A stretch of 64,000 nucleotides of DNA from the NCBI GenBank assembly GCA_947570215.1, contig CANOTO010000001.1:262735-326734 (forward strand), written 5' to 3'. Position 1 is the first letter of the stretch, and the number at the start of each line of letters is the position of its first letter. The notes below the pieces were generated by a model, which had not been told where the DNA came from, searched no databases, and saw only the letters and a program-made list of their open reading frames with translations. Below, in pieces: positions 5,601-30,789 of the stretch. Source of the stretch: an uncultured Clostridia bacterium (GTDB lineage: Bacteria > Bacillota > Clostridia > Christensenellales > CAG-314). The position numbers and the translations under genes are program-made.

Positions 5601-7535
5601 CACGGAAGGACTGAACGACGGTTCGTACTTAACGCCGTTGTCATCAAACGCTATTTGTTCGACGTTAGGTATCCGTTTCGTACCATTATTGCAAACCAAG
5701 TCGAACAAGCGATGATAGCTTATAGAATATGTTTTTGTAACACGATTTCTTACAGAAGCAAGTACGTCGCTTTCCGTAAAGTAAATTTGCTCGTCTAATA
5801 CGCATTCTTTTGTATCACAGGATGCGTCTTCCCGAACTGTCGTCAACGTAAACTTGCTCAATTGCGACATCGGGGCAGCTAATATGTAATATAATTCCGT
5901 ATAGGGCGCGGGAGCGAAACCTATTTCGCTAAACTCGTACGCGCCCGTATAAGGCTGATTGTTGTTTAGTAATTGGACTTTCAAATAGGACAGCGTGTCC
6001 GTTTTAGTGTCGTCGCGTTTCTTGAGCGGAGCGTAAATAGACAAGGACACCCTTTGCCAAGCGTTTGCCGCCTTGCCGTCTAAAAGCGTTACGCTCGTCT
6101 GCTCGCTTGCTGTTGAAAACTTATAGACAATCTTTGCCTGCATATACTTTGACTTTGCCGATGCGGGAAGCTTGAGCCAGAAAGAATAGTCGAACGTGCG
6201 CAAGCCTTGTTCTTTATCGCTGCGGGTTACTTCGAATTTTGCATTATCGAGTACAGTATAAATTCCGTTAACGGTAAAGGCTGTTTCTTGGTTGATTCTC
6301 GCGGTAGATACTCCGCCCATATCAATACCCGTAGTCTTTGCTCCTTGTTTTTCTAACGTATACAGTTTATTAGATATCTTTTCGAATGAGCTTACAACGC
6401 AGGCGTCGCGGTTGATGAAGTACGCAAGCTTTATACCGTCGTGATTAGTTACGTGCGTTTCGGAAGATACAAGCGTATCTCCGCCGTTGTAATTGTAGGT
6501 GTACGAATTGCTCGACTTGGTTATAAATTCCGCCTGGGCAGGCGCGCCGCAGTACAGCCCGATACCGCAAGCAAGATAGTTGCCGTCGGCGTCCGTCATG
6601 CCCATTCCTACCGAGTGGCTCTTGATAACGCCCTGCTCTACCTTAGATATCTTGCCGCCGTCATACGTAAACCTGTACGCCGACTTGGTTTCAAGGTCGG
6701 TTGCCTGCGTTAACAGCCCGTTGGCGTACTCAAAGCCGAGCGACGGCGTTACAAGGCACTGCGCACCCTTGCGGTTGTACGCAACCCTGTCTGCTTGAAT
6801 AAGACTGCCGTTTGCATCGTATCGGTAGTTTACGCTTGAAAGTATTTTACCGGCGTACGCCGTTGCGGATGATAGGCGACCAACTTCGTCATAACCGAAC
6901 TCGATATATGCTCCGATATGATAGATTGTATGCGAAACTTGCTTTCTCATACGGTAATCGTACGCTTTTACTAAGCGGTTTCGCTCGTCGTATTCGTACG
7001 ACTTCATCATAGTATTTTTATGACACGACACTGTTTTGTTCACTCTGCCCTGTCTGTTGAAATATATACGGTTGCCTGCGCCGTCTTCTATGTAAATGCT
7101 ATCAAAAGTACTATCTCCGCTTACGTTAAGAGTAACTTTGGCATTACGTTCGTCGTAATAACGCCCGTCGGCATACTTTACAAAACGGTGTACTTCGCCC
7201 GATTCGTCCATATACAATACGGTAGAACCGTCCGTTTGCAGCAAATACTGCGCCACGTTAAGCTTCCAGCCGCCTGCAAGCTCGGGGAATTGCTTGACAA
7301 ACGCCGAAAAATGTTGACTTAGGTAGACGTGCCCTACGTTAACGGCAAAGTTGCCGTAGCCTACGCTTAAATCGTCAAACGAATAACGCAGCCTGCCCGT
7401 AGCAAGGTTGACGGCAGGGTTGTCGCCCATATCCGCTTGCGAATAGTCGGTAGTCGCCATCTTGCTTGTTCCGCCACCGAAAAAATCTTCGTACGAACCG
7501 TGTACGGCTTGTAATTTGTTTAATTCTTTATACAT
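2679..7535 (-). CDS. RHS/YD-repeat polymorphic toxin (1618 aa) with a C-terminal swappable toxin tip
   Basis: Many YD repeats are visible (YEYDERNRL, YRYDANGSL, YEYNDYGDL, YRYDDEGRL, YSYDEFGRL, YKYDTYGNR). The RHS-associated core ends ...YEYDIFGN...NPFRWKGFYYDTDTGLYYANGSFYDPATVSYID. Hydrophobic helices follow, then the tip with EEHFAKHGSQFKG...TTYFPRVL. RBS AAGGAGAAATT precedes the ATG. Confidence 0.9.
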   Translation of the reverse strand: MYKELNKLQAVHGSYEDFFGGGTSKMATTDYSQADMGDNPAVNLATGRLRYSFDDLSVGYGNFAVNVGHVYLSQHFSAFVKQFPELAGGWKLNVAQYLLQTDGSTVLYMDESGEVHRFVKYADGRYYDERNAKVTLNVSGDSTFDSIYIEDGAGNRIYFNRQGRVNKTVSCHKNTMMKSYEYDERNRLVKAYDYRMRKQVSHTIYHIGAYIEFGYDEVGRLSSATAYAGKILSSVNYRYDANGSLIQADRVAYNRKGAQCLVTPSLGFEYANGLLTQATDLETKSAYRFTYDGGKISKVEQGVIKSHSVGMGMTDADGNYLACGIGLYCGAPAQAEFITKSSNSYTYNYNGGDTLVSSETHVTNHDGIKLAYFINRDACVVSSFEKISNKLYTLEKQGAKTTGIDMGGVSTARINQETAFTVNGIYTVLDNAKFEVTRSDKEQGLRTFDYSFWLKLPASAKSKYMQAKIVYKFSTASEQTSVTLLDGKAANAWQRVSLSIYAPLKKRDDTKTDTLSYLKVQLLNNNQPYTGAYEFSEIGFAPAPYTELYYILAAPMSQLSKFTLTTVREDASCDTKECVLDEQIYFTESDVLASVRNRVTKTYSISYHRLFDLVCNNGTKRIPNVEQIAFDDNGVKYEPSFSPSVKMYMPDGKTEITTTYKYGPRSITVETVGCREGVSSSATVEIDYYGKTLKETDEYGVSKNYEYNDYGDLTKAELVGSRGTVGSVTYYRYDDEGRLLRSHVGVTGQSVDYTEYDQVGTVTEGKVVNGGFQSTSHNVTNSYGVFRNNTLAVTEYNNGKQLSRRDATYEQGRIRTVSDGLAKYGVKYNLAHNTVEYTQFDKAGAEKLIQRDSVENDRGSYISQKHRSEFYEDNAVKDSVTTELTKYGKINAVTHKNAQGGEVRNTYVYDSPNESVFTALLTTHTDNDNGTITDYYYNDDGELMRWEEKNGDGTENVKVQKISDNVTKYSFGLGIEYMTEITDDSEKILSPRVVETKLHRKYSEVTDDLWSHYNPLKYSYDEFGRLSAKYCHHTTTNYDYVDLAGKSRLQCVLFEYGDRSFSPAYKQLVKTVDELDYYNDGKLKSSKLWVGQKNHEEQEWELNQTVKSSFNYDSLERLTDVEVNKNGVVSTQHVRYNDDGRISHATIKGKDIDFNYNSLGQMSRVGDYTYKYDTYGNRIEKRNGHNDLLVTEYKYARGGQLIQAGSIHYSYNQNGVLCKKINNGSTAKFLLDGNKILGVDIYGGNSYALRFMYDLTGLNFVSYNDVDYEYVLDSQGNVIMLIDSLTDRIVARYEYDIFGNCTVYNADNEIDTDPTSIGNINPFRWKGFYYDTDTGLYYANGSFYDPATVSYIDAAPIESIFSDVFTARRLDRTGLLCDNILELAGNPHNIYTTCELAADTTYTPKYTWLTKVEMKIAQWVRRFNKLPAESKLVWGTLVLMLAVGITIMSHGSVVAILTEMVLGVGFGLAMWAVTSLLNRRSLTMDGAVNAAMDAFLLSSIFVFITAGVNAIKYLCRSKPVTTAELANEVTQNKYLEFESQVKLEEHFAKHGSQFKGMYSNSQEYLQGANYVINNGTYVSEMNGYAMFFRVTSKGKKLYHFVGLERNGLYITTYFPRVL

Positions 7536-7572
7536 AATTTCTCCTTGTTTTTTTGTTACGTTCCGTCAGCCG

Positions 7573-7613
7573 AAATTAAAACGTTTTAGCTGCGCGCCGC
7601 TAAACGCGTTTTT
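7573..7613 (-). terminator. Terminator-like hairpin T2 between the Com-like gene and the RHS start
   Basis: Arms AACGTTTTAGC (7580-7590) and GCTAAACGCGTT (7599-7610). On the - strand the hairpin is followed by UUUUAAUUU. Confidence 0.5.
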
Positions 7614-7620
7614 ACCCAAG

Positions 7621-26230: not shown

Positions 26231-26306
26231 GGGGAGTTAGCTCAGTTGGGAGAGCATCTGCCTTACAAGCAGGGGGTCACAGGTTCGAGCCCTGTACTCC
26301 CCACCA
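26231..26306 (+). tRNA. tRNA-Val (UAC)
   Basis: GGGGAGTTAGCTCAGTTGGGAGAGCATCTGCCTTACAAGCAGGGGGTCACAGGTTCGAGCCCTGTACTCCCCACCA, with anticodon loop CTTACAA. Confidence 0.9.
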
Positions 26307-26383
26307 TACAGTGCCCGGTCGAACCTTTTAGGTTAGGCTGGGTATTTTATTTAGAAACACGCATTACGGCGTGTTTTTTGCAT
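26300..26383. repeat. att-like direct repeat, left copy (tRNA-Val 3' end + flank + terminator)
   Basis: CCCACCATA..GCCCGGTCGAAC..TTTT...GGGT.TTTATTT..GAAACACGC...GGCGTGTTTTTTGCA recurs at 30463-30547. I estimate roughly four fifths identity by eye. Confidence 0.7.
26356..26380 (+). terminator. Terminator of the tRNA cluster
   Basis: AACACGC-ATTACG-GCGTGTT followed by TTTTTT. Confidence 0.7.
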
Positions 26384-26656
26384 TTAATGGGGCGTTGTGT
26401 GTCGTCAATTAAGTTTTCTTTATTTATATGAGTTCTATTAAATAAATTTGTATGAGAAATGAAATTATCACGGGTATTGACACGGTGTGGTATAATGTAA
26501 TTAGGGAAAGTGATTATTCATAGCGAACGCACTACACAATGTAACGCGTTCGCTTGTTTATTGTTACGTAACATTCAAACTGTGGGGCCTGAATTAAATT
26601 TACGTTGTTCAATATATTACTTTCCTGTATTTTACAAAAAGGAGAAATATATAATT

Positions 26657-27244
26657 TTGAATGTGTTTGATAATATCAGAGACAAAGTGTTAAGCCTGTT
26701 CAATCAAAACGGTTGGATAAAGTGGATACATGAAGGAACAATGCGAGCCTACGACAACGAGGATAAAAAGTCAAATATAATATATGCAAGTAAAAGTAAT
26801 CACTGCGCCAAATGCCTTAATATGAACGGTTGCTGCTTTCCTAGAAATAATATGCCGAATTATCCGTTGCATTACAACTGCCATTGTTGGTTAATGCCTG
26901 TAAACAATATACATTTTGAAGCAACAAGTACTAACGAGAAATTTACTATAAATATTTTCAATCCAACGGAAACGAACGGCAAAATTGTGTTGTTTGAAAG
27001 TTTAGGATATGATAAAATGGATTATGAAATGCTAATTGATTTGTATTGCAAACAGGCCAAAGAAAAATACTCTAACGGGGATTTTATTTTAGGTAAGTTA
27101 GACAACTTTGGTCAACGTATCAATATTGTCATTGCATTACCAAGTAAAGATGGAAGCCGAATTAAATATGTTAAGTCGGCTTGGATGGTCTATCCTGACG
27201 GAAAAATCAAATTAATAACCGCAGACGGAGGGAAAGTAAAATGA
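26657..27244 (+). CDS. MuF C-terminal stub fused to an uncharacterised ~115-aa C-terminal domain (candidate toxin, module A)
   Basis: The probable start is TTG at 26657, about 12 nt after GGAG. The ORF-track start at 26510 lies upstream of a leader hairpin. CAKCLNMNGCCFPRNNMPNYPLHYNCHCWLMP matches the C..C..lnG.vF...P.HpNCrC end of phage Mu F / SPP1 gp7 head-morphogenesis proteins. The rest of the protein belongs to no family I can name. Confidence 0.6.
   Translation: MNVFDNIRDKVLSLFNQNGWIKWIHEGTMRAYDNEDKKSNIIYASKSNHCAKCLNMNGCCFPRNNMPNYPLHYNCHCWLMPVNNIHFEATSTNEKFTINIFNPTETNGKIVLFESLGYDKMDYEMLIDLYCKQAKEKYSNGDFILGKLDNFGQRINIVIALPSKDGSRIKYVKSAWMVYPDGKIKLITADGGKVK
26786..26928. repeat. 143-bp perfect direct repeat, copy 1
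   Basis: Checked base by base against 29589-29731: identical. It covers the MuF CxxC...HxNCxC motif. Confidence 0.95.
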
Positions 27245-27639
27245 AAGAATATGATTATATAAAGTTATTGGTTGAAAAAGAGCGATATGCCAAAGACAAC
27301 GTACATAAAGGCATGACGGGATGGATATGCGACGAAAGAATAATAAATGATTGTCGTCTAGTTTGTTTTGATAATTGTGATTTGGAAGACTATCCTATAA
27401 TCTCCATTAAAATCGAAGACATGGAAGTAATTTGGAGCGCACCGACAAAAGACATCGGTACTGAAGTCATTTTATCCGTCAGCAATTACGAGAATATCGG
27501 ACTACATAGAGGACTGAAAGGAACAACCATTGCAAAAGGTGAAAAAGACAATCAATGGATTGTACGTTTTCACAAACAAGACGGGTTACAGCAAGAAACA
27601 GAATGTACACTTAACGAAAGCGACATAGTAATTATCTAA
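27241..27639 (+). CDS. Small protein with two SH3-like halves; candidate immunity/antitoxin of module A
   Basis: ATGA overlap with the upstream stop. The two halves (YDYIKLLVEKERYAKDNVHKGMTGWICDE...VCF and GTEVILSVSNYENIGLHRGLKGTTIAKG...VRF) look like an internal duplication. It is a paralogue of 30043-30441. Confidence 0.65.
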   Translation: MKEYDYIKLLVEKERYAKDNVHKGMTGWICDERIINDCRLVCFDNCDLEDYPIISIKIEDMEVIWSAPTKDIGTEVILSVSNYENIGLHRGLKGTTIAKGEKDNQWIVRFHKQDGLQQETECTLNESDIVII

Positions 27640-27640
27640 A

Positions 27641-27671
27641 ATTCGTTTTAGGTTGTGAATACCCCACCATA
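27641..27671. repeat. 31-bp module-end repeat containing the CCCACCATA core (middle copy)
   Basis: ATTCGTTTTAGGTTGTGAATACCCCACCATA versus 30441-30471 ATTCGTTTTAGGTTATCTAATTCCCACCATA. Confidence 0.7.
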
Positions 27672-28157
27672 ATAAACCCATAACCCATTATTTTTGACTT
27701 CAACATCATTTAACGCTGATTGTATCATCGTTGAAAATGCTGATATTCCCCATGTCTCCCAAGCGCCTTTTATGTTTTCCGCCACGATGTTGATAATATT
27801 AGTTCTTAATGTGTAATACGATGTATTCTGAATAAATAATTCACCATAAGTTTCAGTCGCGCGCGGTGCTATCGTTAAAGTATCGTAAAGTGCTTTTTCT
27901 ACTACGTATTTAGTAATATCTAACTCTTTTATAAAACCGCTTTCATTATTTGTAATTGAAAACAGTCCTACATTTAAGCCATAACGTATAGTACCACTTA
28001 CGCTTCCGCTTGCTAAGATAGTAGATGCGTTGATTAGTATTTTGTTGATATGGTCGATTTTTTGGTTTGTAATAATCTGACAATTATTTGTTGTGATTTT
28101 TGAACTGCTGCTACGTGGGGTTATCCACGCATTATTTGCCGGAAAAATAGATGCCAT
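27648..28157 (-). CDS. Hypothetical protein (169 aa), AT-rich island gene
   Basis: Long ORF with GGAGAAGAAAAT upstream of the ATG. No motif recognised. Confidence 0.5.
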   Translation of the reverse strand: MASIFPANNAWITPRSSSSKITTNNCQIITNQKIDHINKILINASTILASGSVSGTIRYGLNVGLFSITNNESGFIKELDITKYVVEKALYDTLTIAPRATETYGELFIQNTSYYTLRTNIINIVAENIKGAWETWGISAFSTMIQSALNDVEVKNNGLWVYYGGVFTT

Positions 28158-28207
28158 ATTTTCTTCTCCTTATTGACATTTAATGATTTTTAATGTATAT
28201 TTTGATT

Positions 28208-28585
28208 ATGAAACGATTAAACAAAAAGCAGATTGTCTTCGGCTCAATCGCATTAGGTTGCCTTTTATTTTTAATCTATATCCTTATCTGCCCTTTGGGT
28301 TATTTAAGCAATAGATATTTTTGTTACTTTTCAGAGCAACACAAAATTATGAGCGTTGGATTTGGAACAAAGTTTGACAGAAGTGGCTTTGACAATCCTT
28401 TTGTTGTGTTAGGTTATATTAACGTTCCACAAGTCGTTATCTTTTGTGCTATATCACTGATTTTGATTGCTTGCATCGTACTTGTTTGTAAAAATACGCC
28501 CCGTCGCCCGACTAAGGCGGAACGCCTGCAAGCACAAATCGACGAACTGCAACAGCAGGTTGACGAGTTGAAGAAAGGGGACTAA
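28208..28585 (+). CDS. Hypothetical two-TM membrane protein with a C-terminal coiled coil
   Basis: MKRLNKKQIVFGSIALGCLLFLIYILICPLGY..., a second TM segment VVIFCAISLILIACIVLV, and the tail AERLQAQIDELQQQVDELKK. Confidence 0.5.
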   Translation: MKRLNKKQIVFGSIALGCLLFLIYILICPLGYLSNRYFCYFSEQHKIMSVGFGTKFDRSGFDNPFVVLGYINVPQVVIFCAISLILIACIVLVCKNTPRRPTKAERLQAQIDELQQQVDELKKGD

Positions 28586-28678
28586 CTCCCCTTTCCTTAT
28601 GCTGCTTCATCATTGTGCATTAAAAAAGGACGATGCCTATCGCCCTTAATTTTTATATTAAAAAAGATTGACGTCTGC

Positions 28679-28863
28679 TGTGAACCCCAAAAGTTGGATA
28701 AATAATATAGTTAGATTTGATGTGAATGAGTTCGGTACTGTACCGGACTCATTCCGTTTAGTGTTAGAGATATTCTCTTGTTATTCCAATAGTTGATGTA
28801 CTCTTTCAGACGGTGGACGAATTCGTCCACTGTCTGAAACTTTTCACCATAGTACATTATCGT
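28679..28863 (-). mobile_element. IS3-family insertion-sequence remnant (3' end of the transposase ORF plus a putative terminal inverted repeat)
   Basis: The C-terminal ~50 codons read ...YYGEKFQTVDEFVHRLKEYINYWNNKRISLTLNGMSPVQYRTHS, the typical IS3/IS150 OrfB tail. TGTGAACCCCAAAAGTTGGA at 28679 is a plausible IR starting with TG. The rest of the IS is absent. Confidence 0.6.
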
Positions 28864-29472
28864 CGTGTAATTGCCCGAGTTAGTCAACCGCGGTATTGCG
28901 TCTATGACCGCCCCGATTTGCACAAGGCACTCCCACAACGTCGTTTGCGTGTTCCACTTAAACTGCGGAGACTTAATATTCTTTAACGCATACACCACCT
29001 TGTTTTCAACCGTCAACGAATATTGCGCGGTTTCGCTTTGTCCGTAGTCGAACGGGACAATATCGAGCAACCGCGTTACAACGTCAAACAAGCTGTCGCG
29101 CTTATCTACCGCTTCGGGCTGCGTTACGCCTATGCCGTCTATCAACACGCCTTCAAGTGTTTTACTTGGCTCTACCAGTGCCACTTCGTGCGAATATATG
29201 CCCTGTTCGTCATCGTCCGCTCGAGCCAACGCTCTGTTGTCCGTCCCCACATACCAAAAGATTTCCCATTCCGTCGGAGAATACCGTACGCTTACGTTGT
29301 AATGCGCAAGCGGGGCGACCATACCTTTGCCGTGCGCTTCCGTCTTCAAATACCGCAGCGTTCCGCTGTCTAACTCTGCACCCAACTGAAACACTAAATC
29401 TATCGGCGACTTGGCTCGCAATTCGCTCTCTAAGCCGCCTTCATTTTTCAACAATCTTGCTTCTACGCTCAT
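28711..29472 (-). pseudogene. Chimeric ORF: N-terminal ~200 aa of a phage tail/minor structural protein fused in frame to the IS3 transposase tail
   Basis: The start MSVEARLLKNEGG follows AGGTGGACAA. The middle part ...YSHEVALVEPSKTLEGVLIDG...SLFDVVTRLLDIVPF...PQFKWNTQTTLWECLVQIGAVIDAIPRLT resembles N-terminal regions of siphophage tail-tip proteins. The junction is near 28863. Confidence 0.5.
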
Positions 29473-29588
29473 TTGTCCACCTACCTGTTTTGCCCGGACA
29501 GATATCCCGCGCGCCGAGCCAATTCGCTTGCGTTGCGGTTCTGCCACATAATCGGTGTGTGATATTCTTGTAAAAGAGTGCATGCGCG

Positions 29589-29731
29589 GCAAGTAAAAGT
29601 AATCACTGCGCCAAATGCCTTAATATGAACGGTTGCTGCTTTCCTAGAAATAATATGCCGAATTATCCGTTGCATTACAACTGCCATTGTTGGTTAATGC
29701 CTGTAAACAATATACATTTTGAAGCAACAAG
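29589..29731. repeat. 143-bp perfect direct repeat, copy 2
   Basis: Identical to 26786-26928. Confidence 0.95.
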
Positions 29732-30059
29732 CAATTTGCGTAAGTTCGAAGAATATGCTTTAAAATTCAAACCCGTAAACGATAAAAGTGGATTGTTTTT
29801 AAAATGGGGCTATGATATAATGGATGCAGATTGGTTATTGCAAGAATATTGCCGTCAAGCGCAGGAAAAATATGCTAACGGAAAATTTACTCGTTTTAAA
29901 TTAGATGACTTCGGCCAGCATATAAATATTAAAATAACATTGCCACGCAAAGACGGGAAAGGCAGTGTCACATTAACGTCGGGTTGGTTAGTATACCCCG
30001 ACGGAGAGATTAAGCTAACAACACCATATGGAGATAAGGAATATGAAAGAATACGATAG
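29625..30059 (+). CDS. 5'-truncated paralogue of the MuF-stub/unknown-domain gene (module B)
   Basis: The frame is open from 29574, and the first ATG at 29625 lies inside the 143-bp repeat. The C-terminal domain ...WGYDIMDADWLLQEYCRQAQEKYANGKFTRFKLDDFGQHINIKITLPRKDGKGSVTLTSGWLVYPDGEIKLTTPY is homologous to module A but diverged. No RBS is seen upstream. Confidence 0.55.
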   Translation: MNGCCFPRNNMPNYPLHYNCHCWLMPVNNIHFEATSNLRKFEEYALKFKPVNDKSGLFLKWGYDIMDADWLLQEYCRQAQEKYANGKFTRFKLDDFGQHINIKITLPRKDGKGSVTLTSGWLVYPDGEIKLTTPYGDKEYERIR

Positions 30060-30441
30060 CGTAAAACTAACAGTAGAAAAAGAAAAATACGCCAAAGAGG
30101 GCGTGCACAAGGGAATGATCGGCTGGATATGCGACGAAAGAATAATAAACGAGCAACGATTGGTTTGCTTTGACGGAGGAGAGGTATCTCCCTTTCCCAT
30201 ATTACCGATTAAAGAATACGATTTAGAAGTCGTATGGGAATCGCACGAAAGGCAAGTAGGAGACAAAGTTCTTTTTTTGTCGGAACAGTACAAAAACGTA
30301 GGCATTGCAAAAGGATTGCGAGGCGTATTGATTGCCAAGTTGGAAAATAACAAATGGACAATCCGTTTTCACAAACAAGACGGATTACAACAAGAATGTG
30401 ATTTGACGGTTGACGGAAACGATTTTATAGTTGACAATTAA
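30043..30441 (+). CDS. Small protein with two SH3-like halves; candidate immunity/antitoxin of module B
   Basis: MKEYDSVKLTVEKEKYAKEGVHKGMIGWICDERIINEQRLVCFDGG... is a clear paralogue of 27241-27639. The start was trimmed from 30028 to the ATG at 30043 by analogy, and follows GGAGATAAGGAAT. Confidence 0.65.
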   Translation: MKEYDSVKLTVEKEKYAKEGVHKGMIGWICDERIINEQRLVCFDGGEVSPFPILPIKEYDLEVVWESHERQVGDKVLFLSEQYKNVGIAKGLRGVLIAKLENNKWTIRFHKQDGLQQECDLTVDGNDFIVDN

Positions 30442-30471
30442 TTCGTTTTAGGTTATCTAATTCCCACCATA
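30441..30471. repeat. 31-bp module-end repeat containing the CCCACCATA core (right copy)
   Basis: See 27641-27671. Confidence 0.7.
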
Positions 30472-30547
30472 GCATTGCCCGGTCGAACATTTTGTTTGAT
30501 TGGGTCTTTATTTTGAAAACACGCAAATTAGGCGTGTTTTTTTGCAC
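30463..30547. repeat. att-like direct repeat, right copy (displaced tRNA-Val flank and terminator)
   Basis: See 26300-26383. Confidence 0.7.
30518..30544 (+). terminator. Duplicated tRNA-cluster terminator
   Basis: AACACGC-AAATTAG-GCGTGTT followed by TTTTTTT. Confidence 0.6.
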
Positions 30548-30789
30548 TATAAATAACCGGAACCGCGTGTTAGTGTTATACTATAAAGCGCCTTCGTTGT
30601 CGAGTGGATTGTTTCACTATGGAAAATGTTTATTTTACTATTTACAAATAAAATAATATACGCAAAATTTATCATGGGCATTGACCCACGTAAAAATCGA
30701 GATTACGCTATTACAATTTATTACAAATATTACATGTTTTAGGTTATCTGATTTCAACCGTCAAATCCCATAAACGAAAGTTCGTTTAT

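Follow-up and report, generated by a model that had tools for sequence, protein, structure and literature searches.

A probable tRNA-Val-linked array of small toxin-immunity cassettes with a displaced orphan module in an uncultured Clostridia bacterium

In contact-dependent growth inhibition (CDI) and Rhs systems, orphan cdiA-CT/cdiI and rhs-CT/rhsI modules, reportedly described by Poole et al. 2011 and Koskiniemi et al. 2014, carry toxin tips that are displaced to a place behind the full-length gene. In temperate phages, the MuF polymorphic toxins, a group associated with Jamet et al. 2017, combine a MuF N-terminal domain with a C-terminal toxin and an immunity protein. Islets that lack an integrase can accrete in tandem at tRNA genes, as cis-mobilisable elements (CIMEs) do. 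Here we analysed a 64,000-nt stretch of DNA (hereafter the window) from an uncultured Clostridia bacterium (assembly GCA_947570215.1, contig CANOTO010000001.1), in which two toxin-immunity modules downstream of a tRNA-Val gene share a perfect direct repeat of 143 bp. The locus has the orphan-module organisation of the CDI/Rhs type, but it is not a member of the CDI/Rhs families. We consider it probable that the locus is a tRNA-Val-linked array of toxin-immunity cassettes in which unit 2 is a displaced orphan, and in which the repeat is the inherited identity of a shared module, cut by truncation.

The direct repeat and the 5' module shared between toxin alleles

A repeat search of the window and pairwise alignment of the two modules agree with the initial annotation that positions 26786-26928 and 29589-29731 form a direct repeat (143 nt, 100% identical, 2803 bp spacing). 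The sequence that precedes 29589 has no relation to module 1; beyond the repeat, the modules align with indels and with ~61% nucleotide identity in the toxin tip and ~63% in the immunity gene. Outside the repeat they share no exact run longer than 26 nt, and the probability of 143 consecutive matches at a background identity of 70% is ~7e-23. Copy 1 of the repeat (26786..26928; all features are on the + strand unless stated), which we call the handle, encodes ASKSNHCAKCLNMNGCCFPRNNMPNYPLHYNCHCWLMPVNNIHFEATS with a CxxC...HxxCHC motif. Copy 2 (29589..29731) is the sole remnant of the 5' module of unit 2, and its haplotype is the same as that of contigs L029 and L032. The 1.53-Mb, 17-contig genome holds two copies of the handle, both in the window, and a search of JGI metagenome contigs with the exact 42-nt handle pattern gave 0 matches.

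Unit 1 follows the tRNA-Val(TAC) gene (26231..26306; ARAGORN), the last of a Met-Glu-Val tRNA cluster, whose 3' end CCCCACCA anchors the cassette array; cassettes also follow the same tRNA-Val in G018, G009, L030 and L032. The 5' module (26307..26928) consists of the hairpin/terminator flank downstream of the tRNA, an extended -10 promoter (TGgTATAAT, 26488-26496), a leader, a ribosome-binding site (RBS) and toxin codons 1-91. The first toxin gene, tox1 (26657..27244), starts at TTG 26657 with the RBS AGGAG at 26640, and is complete at 195 aa; in its product, residues 1-91 form a MuF-like stub and residues 93-189 a DUF6883/BECR-Tox3 domain, and its C-terminal part, tip1, occupies 26929-27244. 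A 244-aa open reading frame (ORF) from 26510 was rejected as a mechanical over-extension of this gene. The stop codon of tox1 is overlapped by imm1 (27241..27639), which encodes a putative cognate immunity protein of 132 aa. An immunity gene is conserved 3' of every toxin homologue, and full-length homologues of tox1 are likewise ~195 aa long.

Unit 2 is much reduced at its 5' end. The toxin remnant tox2' (29589..30059), composed of the handle and tip2, is promoterless and also lacks an RBS and the first 43 codons; its frame is open from 29574 and has its first ATG at 29625, with no Shine-Dalgarno sequence ahead of that ATG. Reading frames and alignment therefore bear out the earlier view that copy 2 begins mid-gene, is 5'-truncated and has no RBS. 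A phage-like gene and the toxin gene are both interrupted at junction J3 (29588/29589), indicating that the 5' boundary of copy 2 is an illegitimate junction and not a programmed site. The diverged immunity paralogue that had been placed at 30043-30441 is likewise present: imm2 (30043..30441) is an intact 132-aa gene with its own RBS (GGAG, 30030-30033) and 53% amino-acid identity to imm1, the corresponding value for tip1 and tip2 being 48%. Three substitutions are private to tox2', at 29883 (E->K), 30014 (synonymous) and 30039 (stop TAA->GAA at 30037-30039), the last of which lengthens the frame by 6 codons; the window, L022, L023 and L025 all carry this composite haplotype. No substitution separates imm2 from its counterpart in five of the six single-module contigs described below. 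We infer from the sequence that tox2' is probably silent and starting to decay, and that imm2 may be retained for still protecting against tip2 toxin from other strains or from a reconstituted gene.

We surveyed the population by looking up both immunity proteins by exact sequence across collection blocks; imm1 was present in 87 blocks and imm2 in 204. Every imm1-bearing contig that was read (22 of 22) carried the composite, window-type locus. The imm2 gene sits both in composite loci and in single-module loci after a full-length toxin gene (L029-L032 and L039; L028, in another context), and its protein is identical in composite and single-module strains. Two of the single-module loci, L030 and L032, are at tRNA-Val, with L032 directly adjoining it. 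All six single-module contigs (L028-L032 and L039), which come from other samples, are 98-100% identical to window positions 26310-26928, that is, to the flank, promoter, leader and codons 1-91, and 98-99% identical to the window from 29732 on (tip2 and imm2). Compared with tip1, the identity of these full-length tip2 alleles falls to 36-40% in the first 50-nt window from 26929, placing the allele breakpoint at residue 91; the DUF6883 match begins at residue 93. On these alignments, the conserved part common to tip1 and tip2 alleles is ~620 bp, not 143 bp. The same N-terminal part is also joined to other tips in the population, namely a third tip (P0006) and, in P0008, through an earlier breakpoint, and the locus follows the initially proposed logic of a conserved handle followed by a variable tip and its antidote.

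The private tox2' changes occur neither in the six single-module contigs nor in the full-length tip2 proteins among the 15 listed members of a 33-member cluster at 90% identity, indicating that the sampled single-module strains are not deletion derivatives of the composite locus. By contrast, orphan-type products P0050 and P0054, found on 55 contigs (48+7, from NCBI, ENA and Logan), all carry the private markers. The composite haplotype is a stable, widely sampled lineage, and the single-module tip2 strains look, from these sequences, like the older and more widespread state. As for the deletion product that had been predicted from recombination between the two handles, the corresponding gene form (5' module, tip2 and imm2) does exist elsewhere, but no deletion derivative was found among these strains.

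An alternative is that the two copies diverged as whole modules and that 143 bp were recently homogenised by in-genome gene conversion, as the initial annotation had proposed from the perfect identity, or that the repeat actively switches the expressed tip. Consistent with this, both copies in the window share one handle haplotype while a second haplotype with 7 differences in 33 bp circulates in other strains; a 300-nt perfect repeat is shared by adjacent immunity paralogues of G018; and mosaic alleles with differing breakpoints occur. However, the whole 5' module is nearly as well conserved between tip1 and tip2 alleles of different strains as the repeat is within the window. Since this ~620-bp module is truncated to its last 143 bp in copy 2, the perfect identity needs no in-genome gene conversion. 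Moreover, 3 changes in 308 bp of tox2' correspond to ~1.4 expected changes in 143 bp, so that zero is unremarkable, and both the restriction of the markers to the composite haplotype and the stability of that haplotype argue against ongoing conversion or switching. We therefore regard this alternative as quite unlikely.

Two strain variants might instead have been chimerically joined through their common handle during assembly. The genome is probably metagenome-derived (17 contigs, 93% complete) and two handle-sharing alleles do co-exist in the population. The two copies are, however, 1.9 kb of unique sequence apart, and at least four independent ENA assemblies (L022-L025) hold the composite locus at 99.9-100% identity, with 18 further contigs reported to be similar; the Logan contig L033 begins within the repeat, as expected if the repeat is true. 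The orphan product is found in all three collections named above, and the tox2' single-nucleotide polymorphisms specific to the composite locus were never seen in single-module strains. We rejected a chimeric join on the strength of this recurrence, and consider an artefact extremely improbable.

In the reading that we consider probable, unit 1 would be a complete cassette with its own promoter, tox1 (a zinc-motif, MuF-like stub fused to DUF6883/BECR-Tox3) being followed by imm1. The ~620-bp 5' module would be nearly invariant in the species and joined at residue 91 to at least two alleles, tip1/imm1 and tip2/imm2, of which tip2 would otherwise be the single full-length expressed allele at the tRNA-Val site. 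In the lineage of the window, the tip1 unit and a piece of a prophage-like mobile element would have come to lie upstream of the resident tip2 gene, and one non-homologous event at 29588/29589 would have taken the promoter and first 43 codons of that gene. This event may have been an internal deletion in a two-unit array, or the illegitimate end of a homology-facilitated insertion into the tip2 gene. In principle, RecA-type recombination between the two 143-bp copies could restore a gene that expresses tip2, with loss of tip1 and imm1. It is very unlikely that the handle is a functional switch, in which rare RecA-dependent deletion would yield tip2/imm2 producers, tox2' would be a silent reserve specificity, and the MuF-like stub would load the toxin into virions of resident or infecting phages, which would deliver it; if this were true, uncultured gut Clostridia would have a phage-borne toxin system that switches cassettes and is made up of tRNA-linked mini-cassettes.

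Domains, relatives and putative function of the toxin family

Residues 93-189 of tox1 match DUF6883 (PF21814; E 2e-7, 31.6 bits against a cut-off of 27), and tox2' scores 26.0 bits, slightly under the cut-off. The match is above threshold in 42 of 42 aligned relatives (best E 3.4e-11). A 2026 preprint assigns DUF6883 to the BECR-Tox3 RNase family, which usually has a DUF4926 immunity gene downstream and is often found in MuF fusions (bioRxiv 10.64898/2026.08.28.747851). By this profile evidence the tox1 family is a member of DUF6883/BECR-Tox3, and its C-terminal domain is a putative RNase. In the alignment of 42 sequences, H49, C50, C53, H72, C75, H76 and C77 are invariant within the N-terminal 91 residues. 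The repeat had been described as encoding a MuF motif, a description that is partly upheld. Phage_Mu_F (PF04233) does not reach its gathering score in Pfam (14 bits against 29.6, E=0.07-0.09), and weak matches in 13 of the 42 relatives (best E 0.0028) cover only profile positions 59-112 of 112; by contrast, a Foldseek search of the structural model against BFVD matched two siphovirus 'minor capsid proteins' (E 8e-6 and 5e-4). The AlphaFold2 model of the toxin (mean predicted local distance difference test score 89.9) has helices followed by a four-stranded sheet within residues 110-188. A sequence-profile search of the PDB with the toxin gave no match.

The relatives are proteins from Christensenellales-type metagenome-assembled genomes (MAGs), and matches were found in 23 of 82 searched genomes of the host's bacterial family, where partial family matches are numerous. 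Pfam detected no secretion or delivery domain in the toxin, the MuF-like stub being the only hint at virion packaging. A search of the host genome gave no PF04233 match; the toxin gene is chromosomal, adjoining tRNA-Val, and the head-morphogenesis context of a phage (terminase-portal-MuF) is absent, the neighbouring phage-like fragments being on the opposite strand and not head genes.

These features bear on whether the modules are intracellular toxin-antitoxin (TA) or abortive-infection pairs, with copy 2 a decayed duplicate that has no role. A 195-aa protein without a signal peptide, secretion-system domain or delivery domain other than the MuF-like stub, encoded in a genome that has no MuF-bearing prophage, would fit such a pair, as would the tight overlap of the two genes, which is as in TA pairs, and the occurrence of frameshifted toxin alleles beside an intact immunity gene (P0059, P0062 and L028). 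However, alleles with a conserved N-terminal and a variable C-terminal part, co-varying immunity genes, lone immunity genes and orphan modules are together the signature of polymorphic toxins. Furthermore, imm2 is perfectly conserved whereas tox2' has lost its stop codon, and the structural likeness to phage minor capsid (MuF) proteins suggests that the stub is related to delivery. We consider a TA or abortive-infection role unlikely.

Several points also weigh against the reading of the locus as an orphan-bearing cassette array. Both orders of events, deletion in a two-unit array and insertion into the tip2 gene, fit the data. The toxicity, RNase activity and immunity function of the family members are putative, assigned from sequence. 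Foldseek comparison of the toxin model with the PDB returned nothing significant, the best match being CDI toxin 6cp8_A at E 0.037, and DUF4926 (PF16277) was matched in 3 of 6 immunity proteins at sub-threshold scores (E 0.0067-0.19; 11.6-16.3 bits against 29.1). A sigma-70-like promoter was not found on the + strand upstream of tox2', which leaves the expression of imm2 unexplained; that tox2' is silent and imm2 expressed is something that we infer. Lastly, the composite haplotype has 3 private changes in tox2' and 0 in imm2, a gap too small for statistical meaning.

Other family members show a range of arrangements. MAG L034 carries two complete units head to tail, and G018 has three modules, one of them at tRNA-Val. 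A second naturally occurring orphan was considered for P0048, a protein of 130 aa, and was ruled out; the L034 gene is complete, with a GTG start, and had been shortened by the gene caller. Contig L043 (G063:C3, 1474-2150), from another genus, has as its sole family member a 5'-truncated toxin gene with homology from inside the zinc motif; a single-domain, 74-aa immunity-like gene follows it and there is no full-length toxin gene. Tips of the tip1 type occur with a diverged N-terminus in related organisms (P0002 and P0003), and the mosaic allele with the earlier breakpoint, P0008, is on contig L037.

Several sequences in the family carry signs of recombination or decay. In L018 (G018:C21), positions 2167-2466 and 2662-2961 form a 300-nt perfect direct repeat in two adjacent immunity paralogues that follow one toxin gene; the adjoining 94 nt are only 83% identical, making this an independent perfect patch in a diverged pair. 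The two handle haplotypes divide the window, L029 and L032 from L028, L030, L031 and L039, with 7 substitutions in 33 bp. These differences lie at 29645-29672 (equivalent to 26842-26869), and 6 of them are synonymous and 1 is R->K; clustered as they are, they resemble a short tract converted from a diverged allele. At ~2860 in L028 (equivalent to window position 29866), and in P0059 and P0062, a full-length tip2 toxin gene is inactivated by a +AA frameshift and has a product that ends in ...EKNMLTENLLVLN, with imm2 intact.

The mobile-element spacer and the remaining cassette units

The 1.9-kb spacer between the two units (27657-29588) consists of one unbroken stretch of mobile-element sequence that is 97% identical to sister species G017, compared with 89-92% for the chromosomal flanks, and is colinear with G012:C13. 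Unit 1 ends at 27640..27671 in a degenerate copy of the tRNA-Val 3' end, AATTCGTTTTAGGTTGTGAATACCCCACCATA, and the same unit end is found in G018 C1. Junction J1, between unit 1 and the mobile-element fragment, falls within CCACCA(TA) microhomology. The gene truncated at J1 (27648..28157, - strand) retains its N-terminal 169 codons and is intact at 642 aa in G017; by tblastn, the fragment has 97% identity to L017 8551-8051, within ORF 6623-8551. We considered and rejected an array with three clean att cores. The middle 'CCCACCATA core' (window 27657-27671; L017 8051-8075) lies inside the intact 642-aa gene in G017 (CTCCACCATAATAAACCC), and since it is coding there, it would represent a 6-8-bp microhomology join or a secondary site.

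Further into the spacer, a small membrane/coiled-coil ORF of 130 aa (28193..28585) has 100% protein identity in G017 and colinear homologues in G012. A near-consensus promoter (TTGACA-17-TATATT, 11 of 12) at window positions 28173-28201 overlaps the annotated ATG of this ORF, which suggests a later start at ATG 28208 and possibly a leaderless transcript. Downstream of it lies the scar of an IS3-family transposase (28711..28862, - strand; PF13333 rve_2, E 2.7e-16), which comprises the last ~50 codons of the gene and is fused in frame to the next fragment; further copies of the insertion-sequence end occur elsewhere in the host genome. The remaining mobile-element fragment (28863..29588, - strand) holds ~200 codons of a 260-aa-type gene (start 29472) and the last ~38 codons of the gene upstream of it. 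By tblastx it is colinear with G012:C13 (L036 9183-10404), and Pfam and PHROG scans of it gave no match, as was mostly the case for scans of the spacer ORFs and their G012 and G017 homologues. The label 'prophage-like' for the spacer draws only on its neighbours in G017, which are a tail-fibre-like gene, DUF3825 and an M78 peptidase. In that species, an island of ~11 kb (L017, G017:C1, 1830-13000) is located at the same tRNA-Val, without a toxin module. Its genes include a 638-aa tail-fibre-like gene with a PHROG match in addition to the intact 642-aa gene and those just named, and it has the appearance of a prophage-like remnant; its overlap with the window is 1 kb long, at the same raised identity relative to the flanks.

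Each cassette is a whole unit, which begins with a copy of the hairpin/terminator flank found downstream of tRNA-Val (CAGTGCCCGGTCGAAC...) and ends in a degenerate tRNA-Val 3' end (TTCGTTTTAGGTT-N-CCCACCA). Unit 2 ends at 30442..30471 in AATTCGTTTTAGGTTATCTAATTCCCACCATA. It is followed by a third, degenerate unit without cargo (30472..30759), which has a flank/terminator copy ~80% identical to 26300-26379, a promoter-like remnant and an echo of the unit end, GTTTTAGGTTATCTGATTTCAACC. Contig L010 (G002:C19) has a similar cargo-less unit after tRNA-Val, in which the flank and terminators are followed by the unit-end motif TTCGTTTTAGGTTGGGTAATACCACCATA within ~25 nt.

Comparison with CDI/Rhs orphans, MuF toxins and tRNA-linked islets

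The new content is that population data prove both the handle/tip structure of the alleles and the standing of copy 2 as an orphan, and that deletion derivatives were looked for and not found; the locus reveals no new principle. The population evidence is unusually clean, with an exact breakpoint at a domain boundary, displaced and full-length forms of one tip, and nucleotide markers by which deletion derivatives would be recognised. This makes the locus a tractable natural setting in which to study the exchange and stockpiling of toxin specificities, and to ask whether delivery needs no more than a MuF fragment.

As in CDI and Rhs orphans, behind a full-length gene lies a fragment without a promoter, which has a short conserved stretch, a different tip and its own, intact immunity gene, and the common stretch permits homologous recombination that would swap the expressed tip. 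Unlike in those systems, the toxin is only 195 aa long and lacks an Rhs/YD shell, haemagglutinin repeats and a VENN/PxxxxDPxGL demarcation motif, and genes for type V, type VI or type VII secretion systems (T5SS, T6SS and T7SS) are absent from its vicinity. The two tips are also of one fold family, whereas those of CDI and Rhs orphans are unrelated toxins, and the orphan is parted from the main gene by a mobile-element fragment, in cassettes bounded by pseudo-tRNA ends.

The family resembles MuF toxins and BECR-Tox3 pairs in its consistent, above-threshold DUF6883 matches and in the small immunity gene downstream, and resembles MuF toxins further in that the CxxC...HxxCHC motif is like the end of the MuF domain and that Foldseek matches phage minor capsid proteins. 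It differs from MuF toxins in that the Pfam MuF model, of 112 positions, is matched over roughly its second half only, below threshold, and in that the gene is chromosomal beside a tRNA, not in a head-morphogenesis operon, in a genome without a MuF-bearing prophage. Compared with DUF6883-DUF4926 pairs, the immunity protein is a two-domain protein of 132 aa in which DUF4926 is matched only at sub-threshold scores.

With CIMEs, the locus shares units that are bounded by degenerate tRNA 3' ends and arranged head to tail beside a tRNA gene, as well as the occurrence of empty units and of units with other cargo in related genomes. Unlike CIMEs, each unit here also has a copy of the terminator flank downstream of the tRNA, no integrase was identified, and the core copy at 27662-27671 is coding sequence of the 642-aa gene in G017, consistent with a join through microhomology and not with a clean att site. 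An organisation long familiar from CDI, Rhs and related systems is thus extended to a very small (195-aa) MuF-stub/DUF6883 family, which occurs in uncultured gut Christensenellales-type bacteria.

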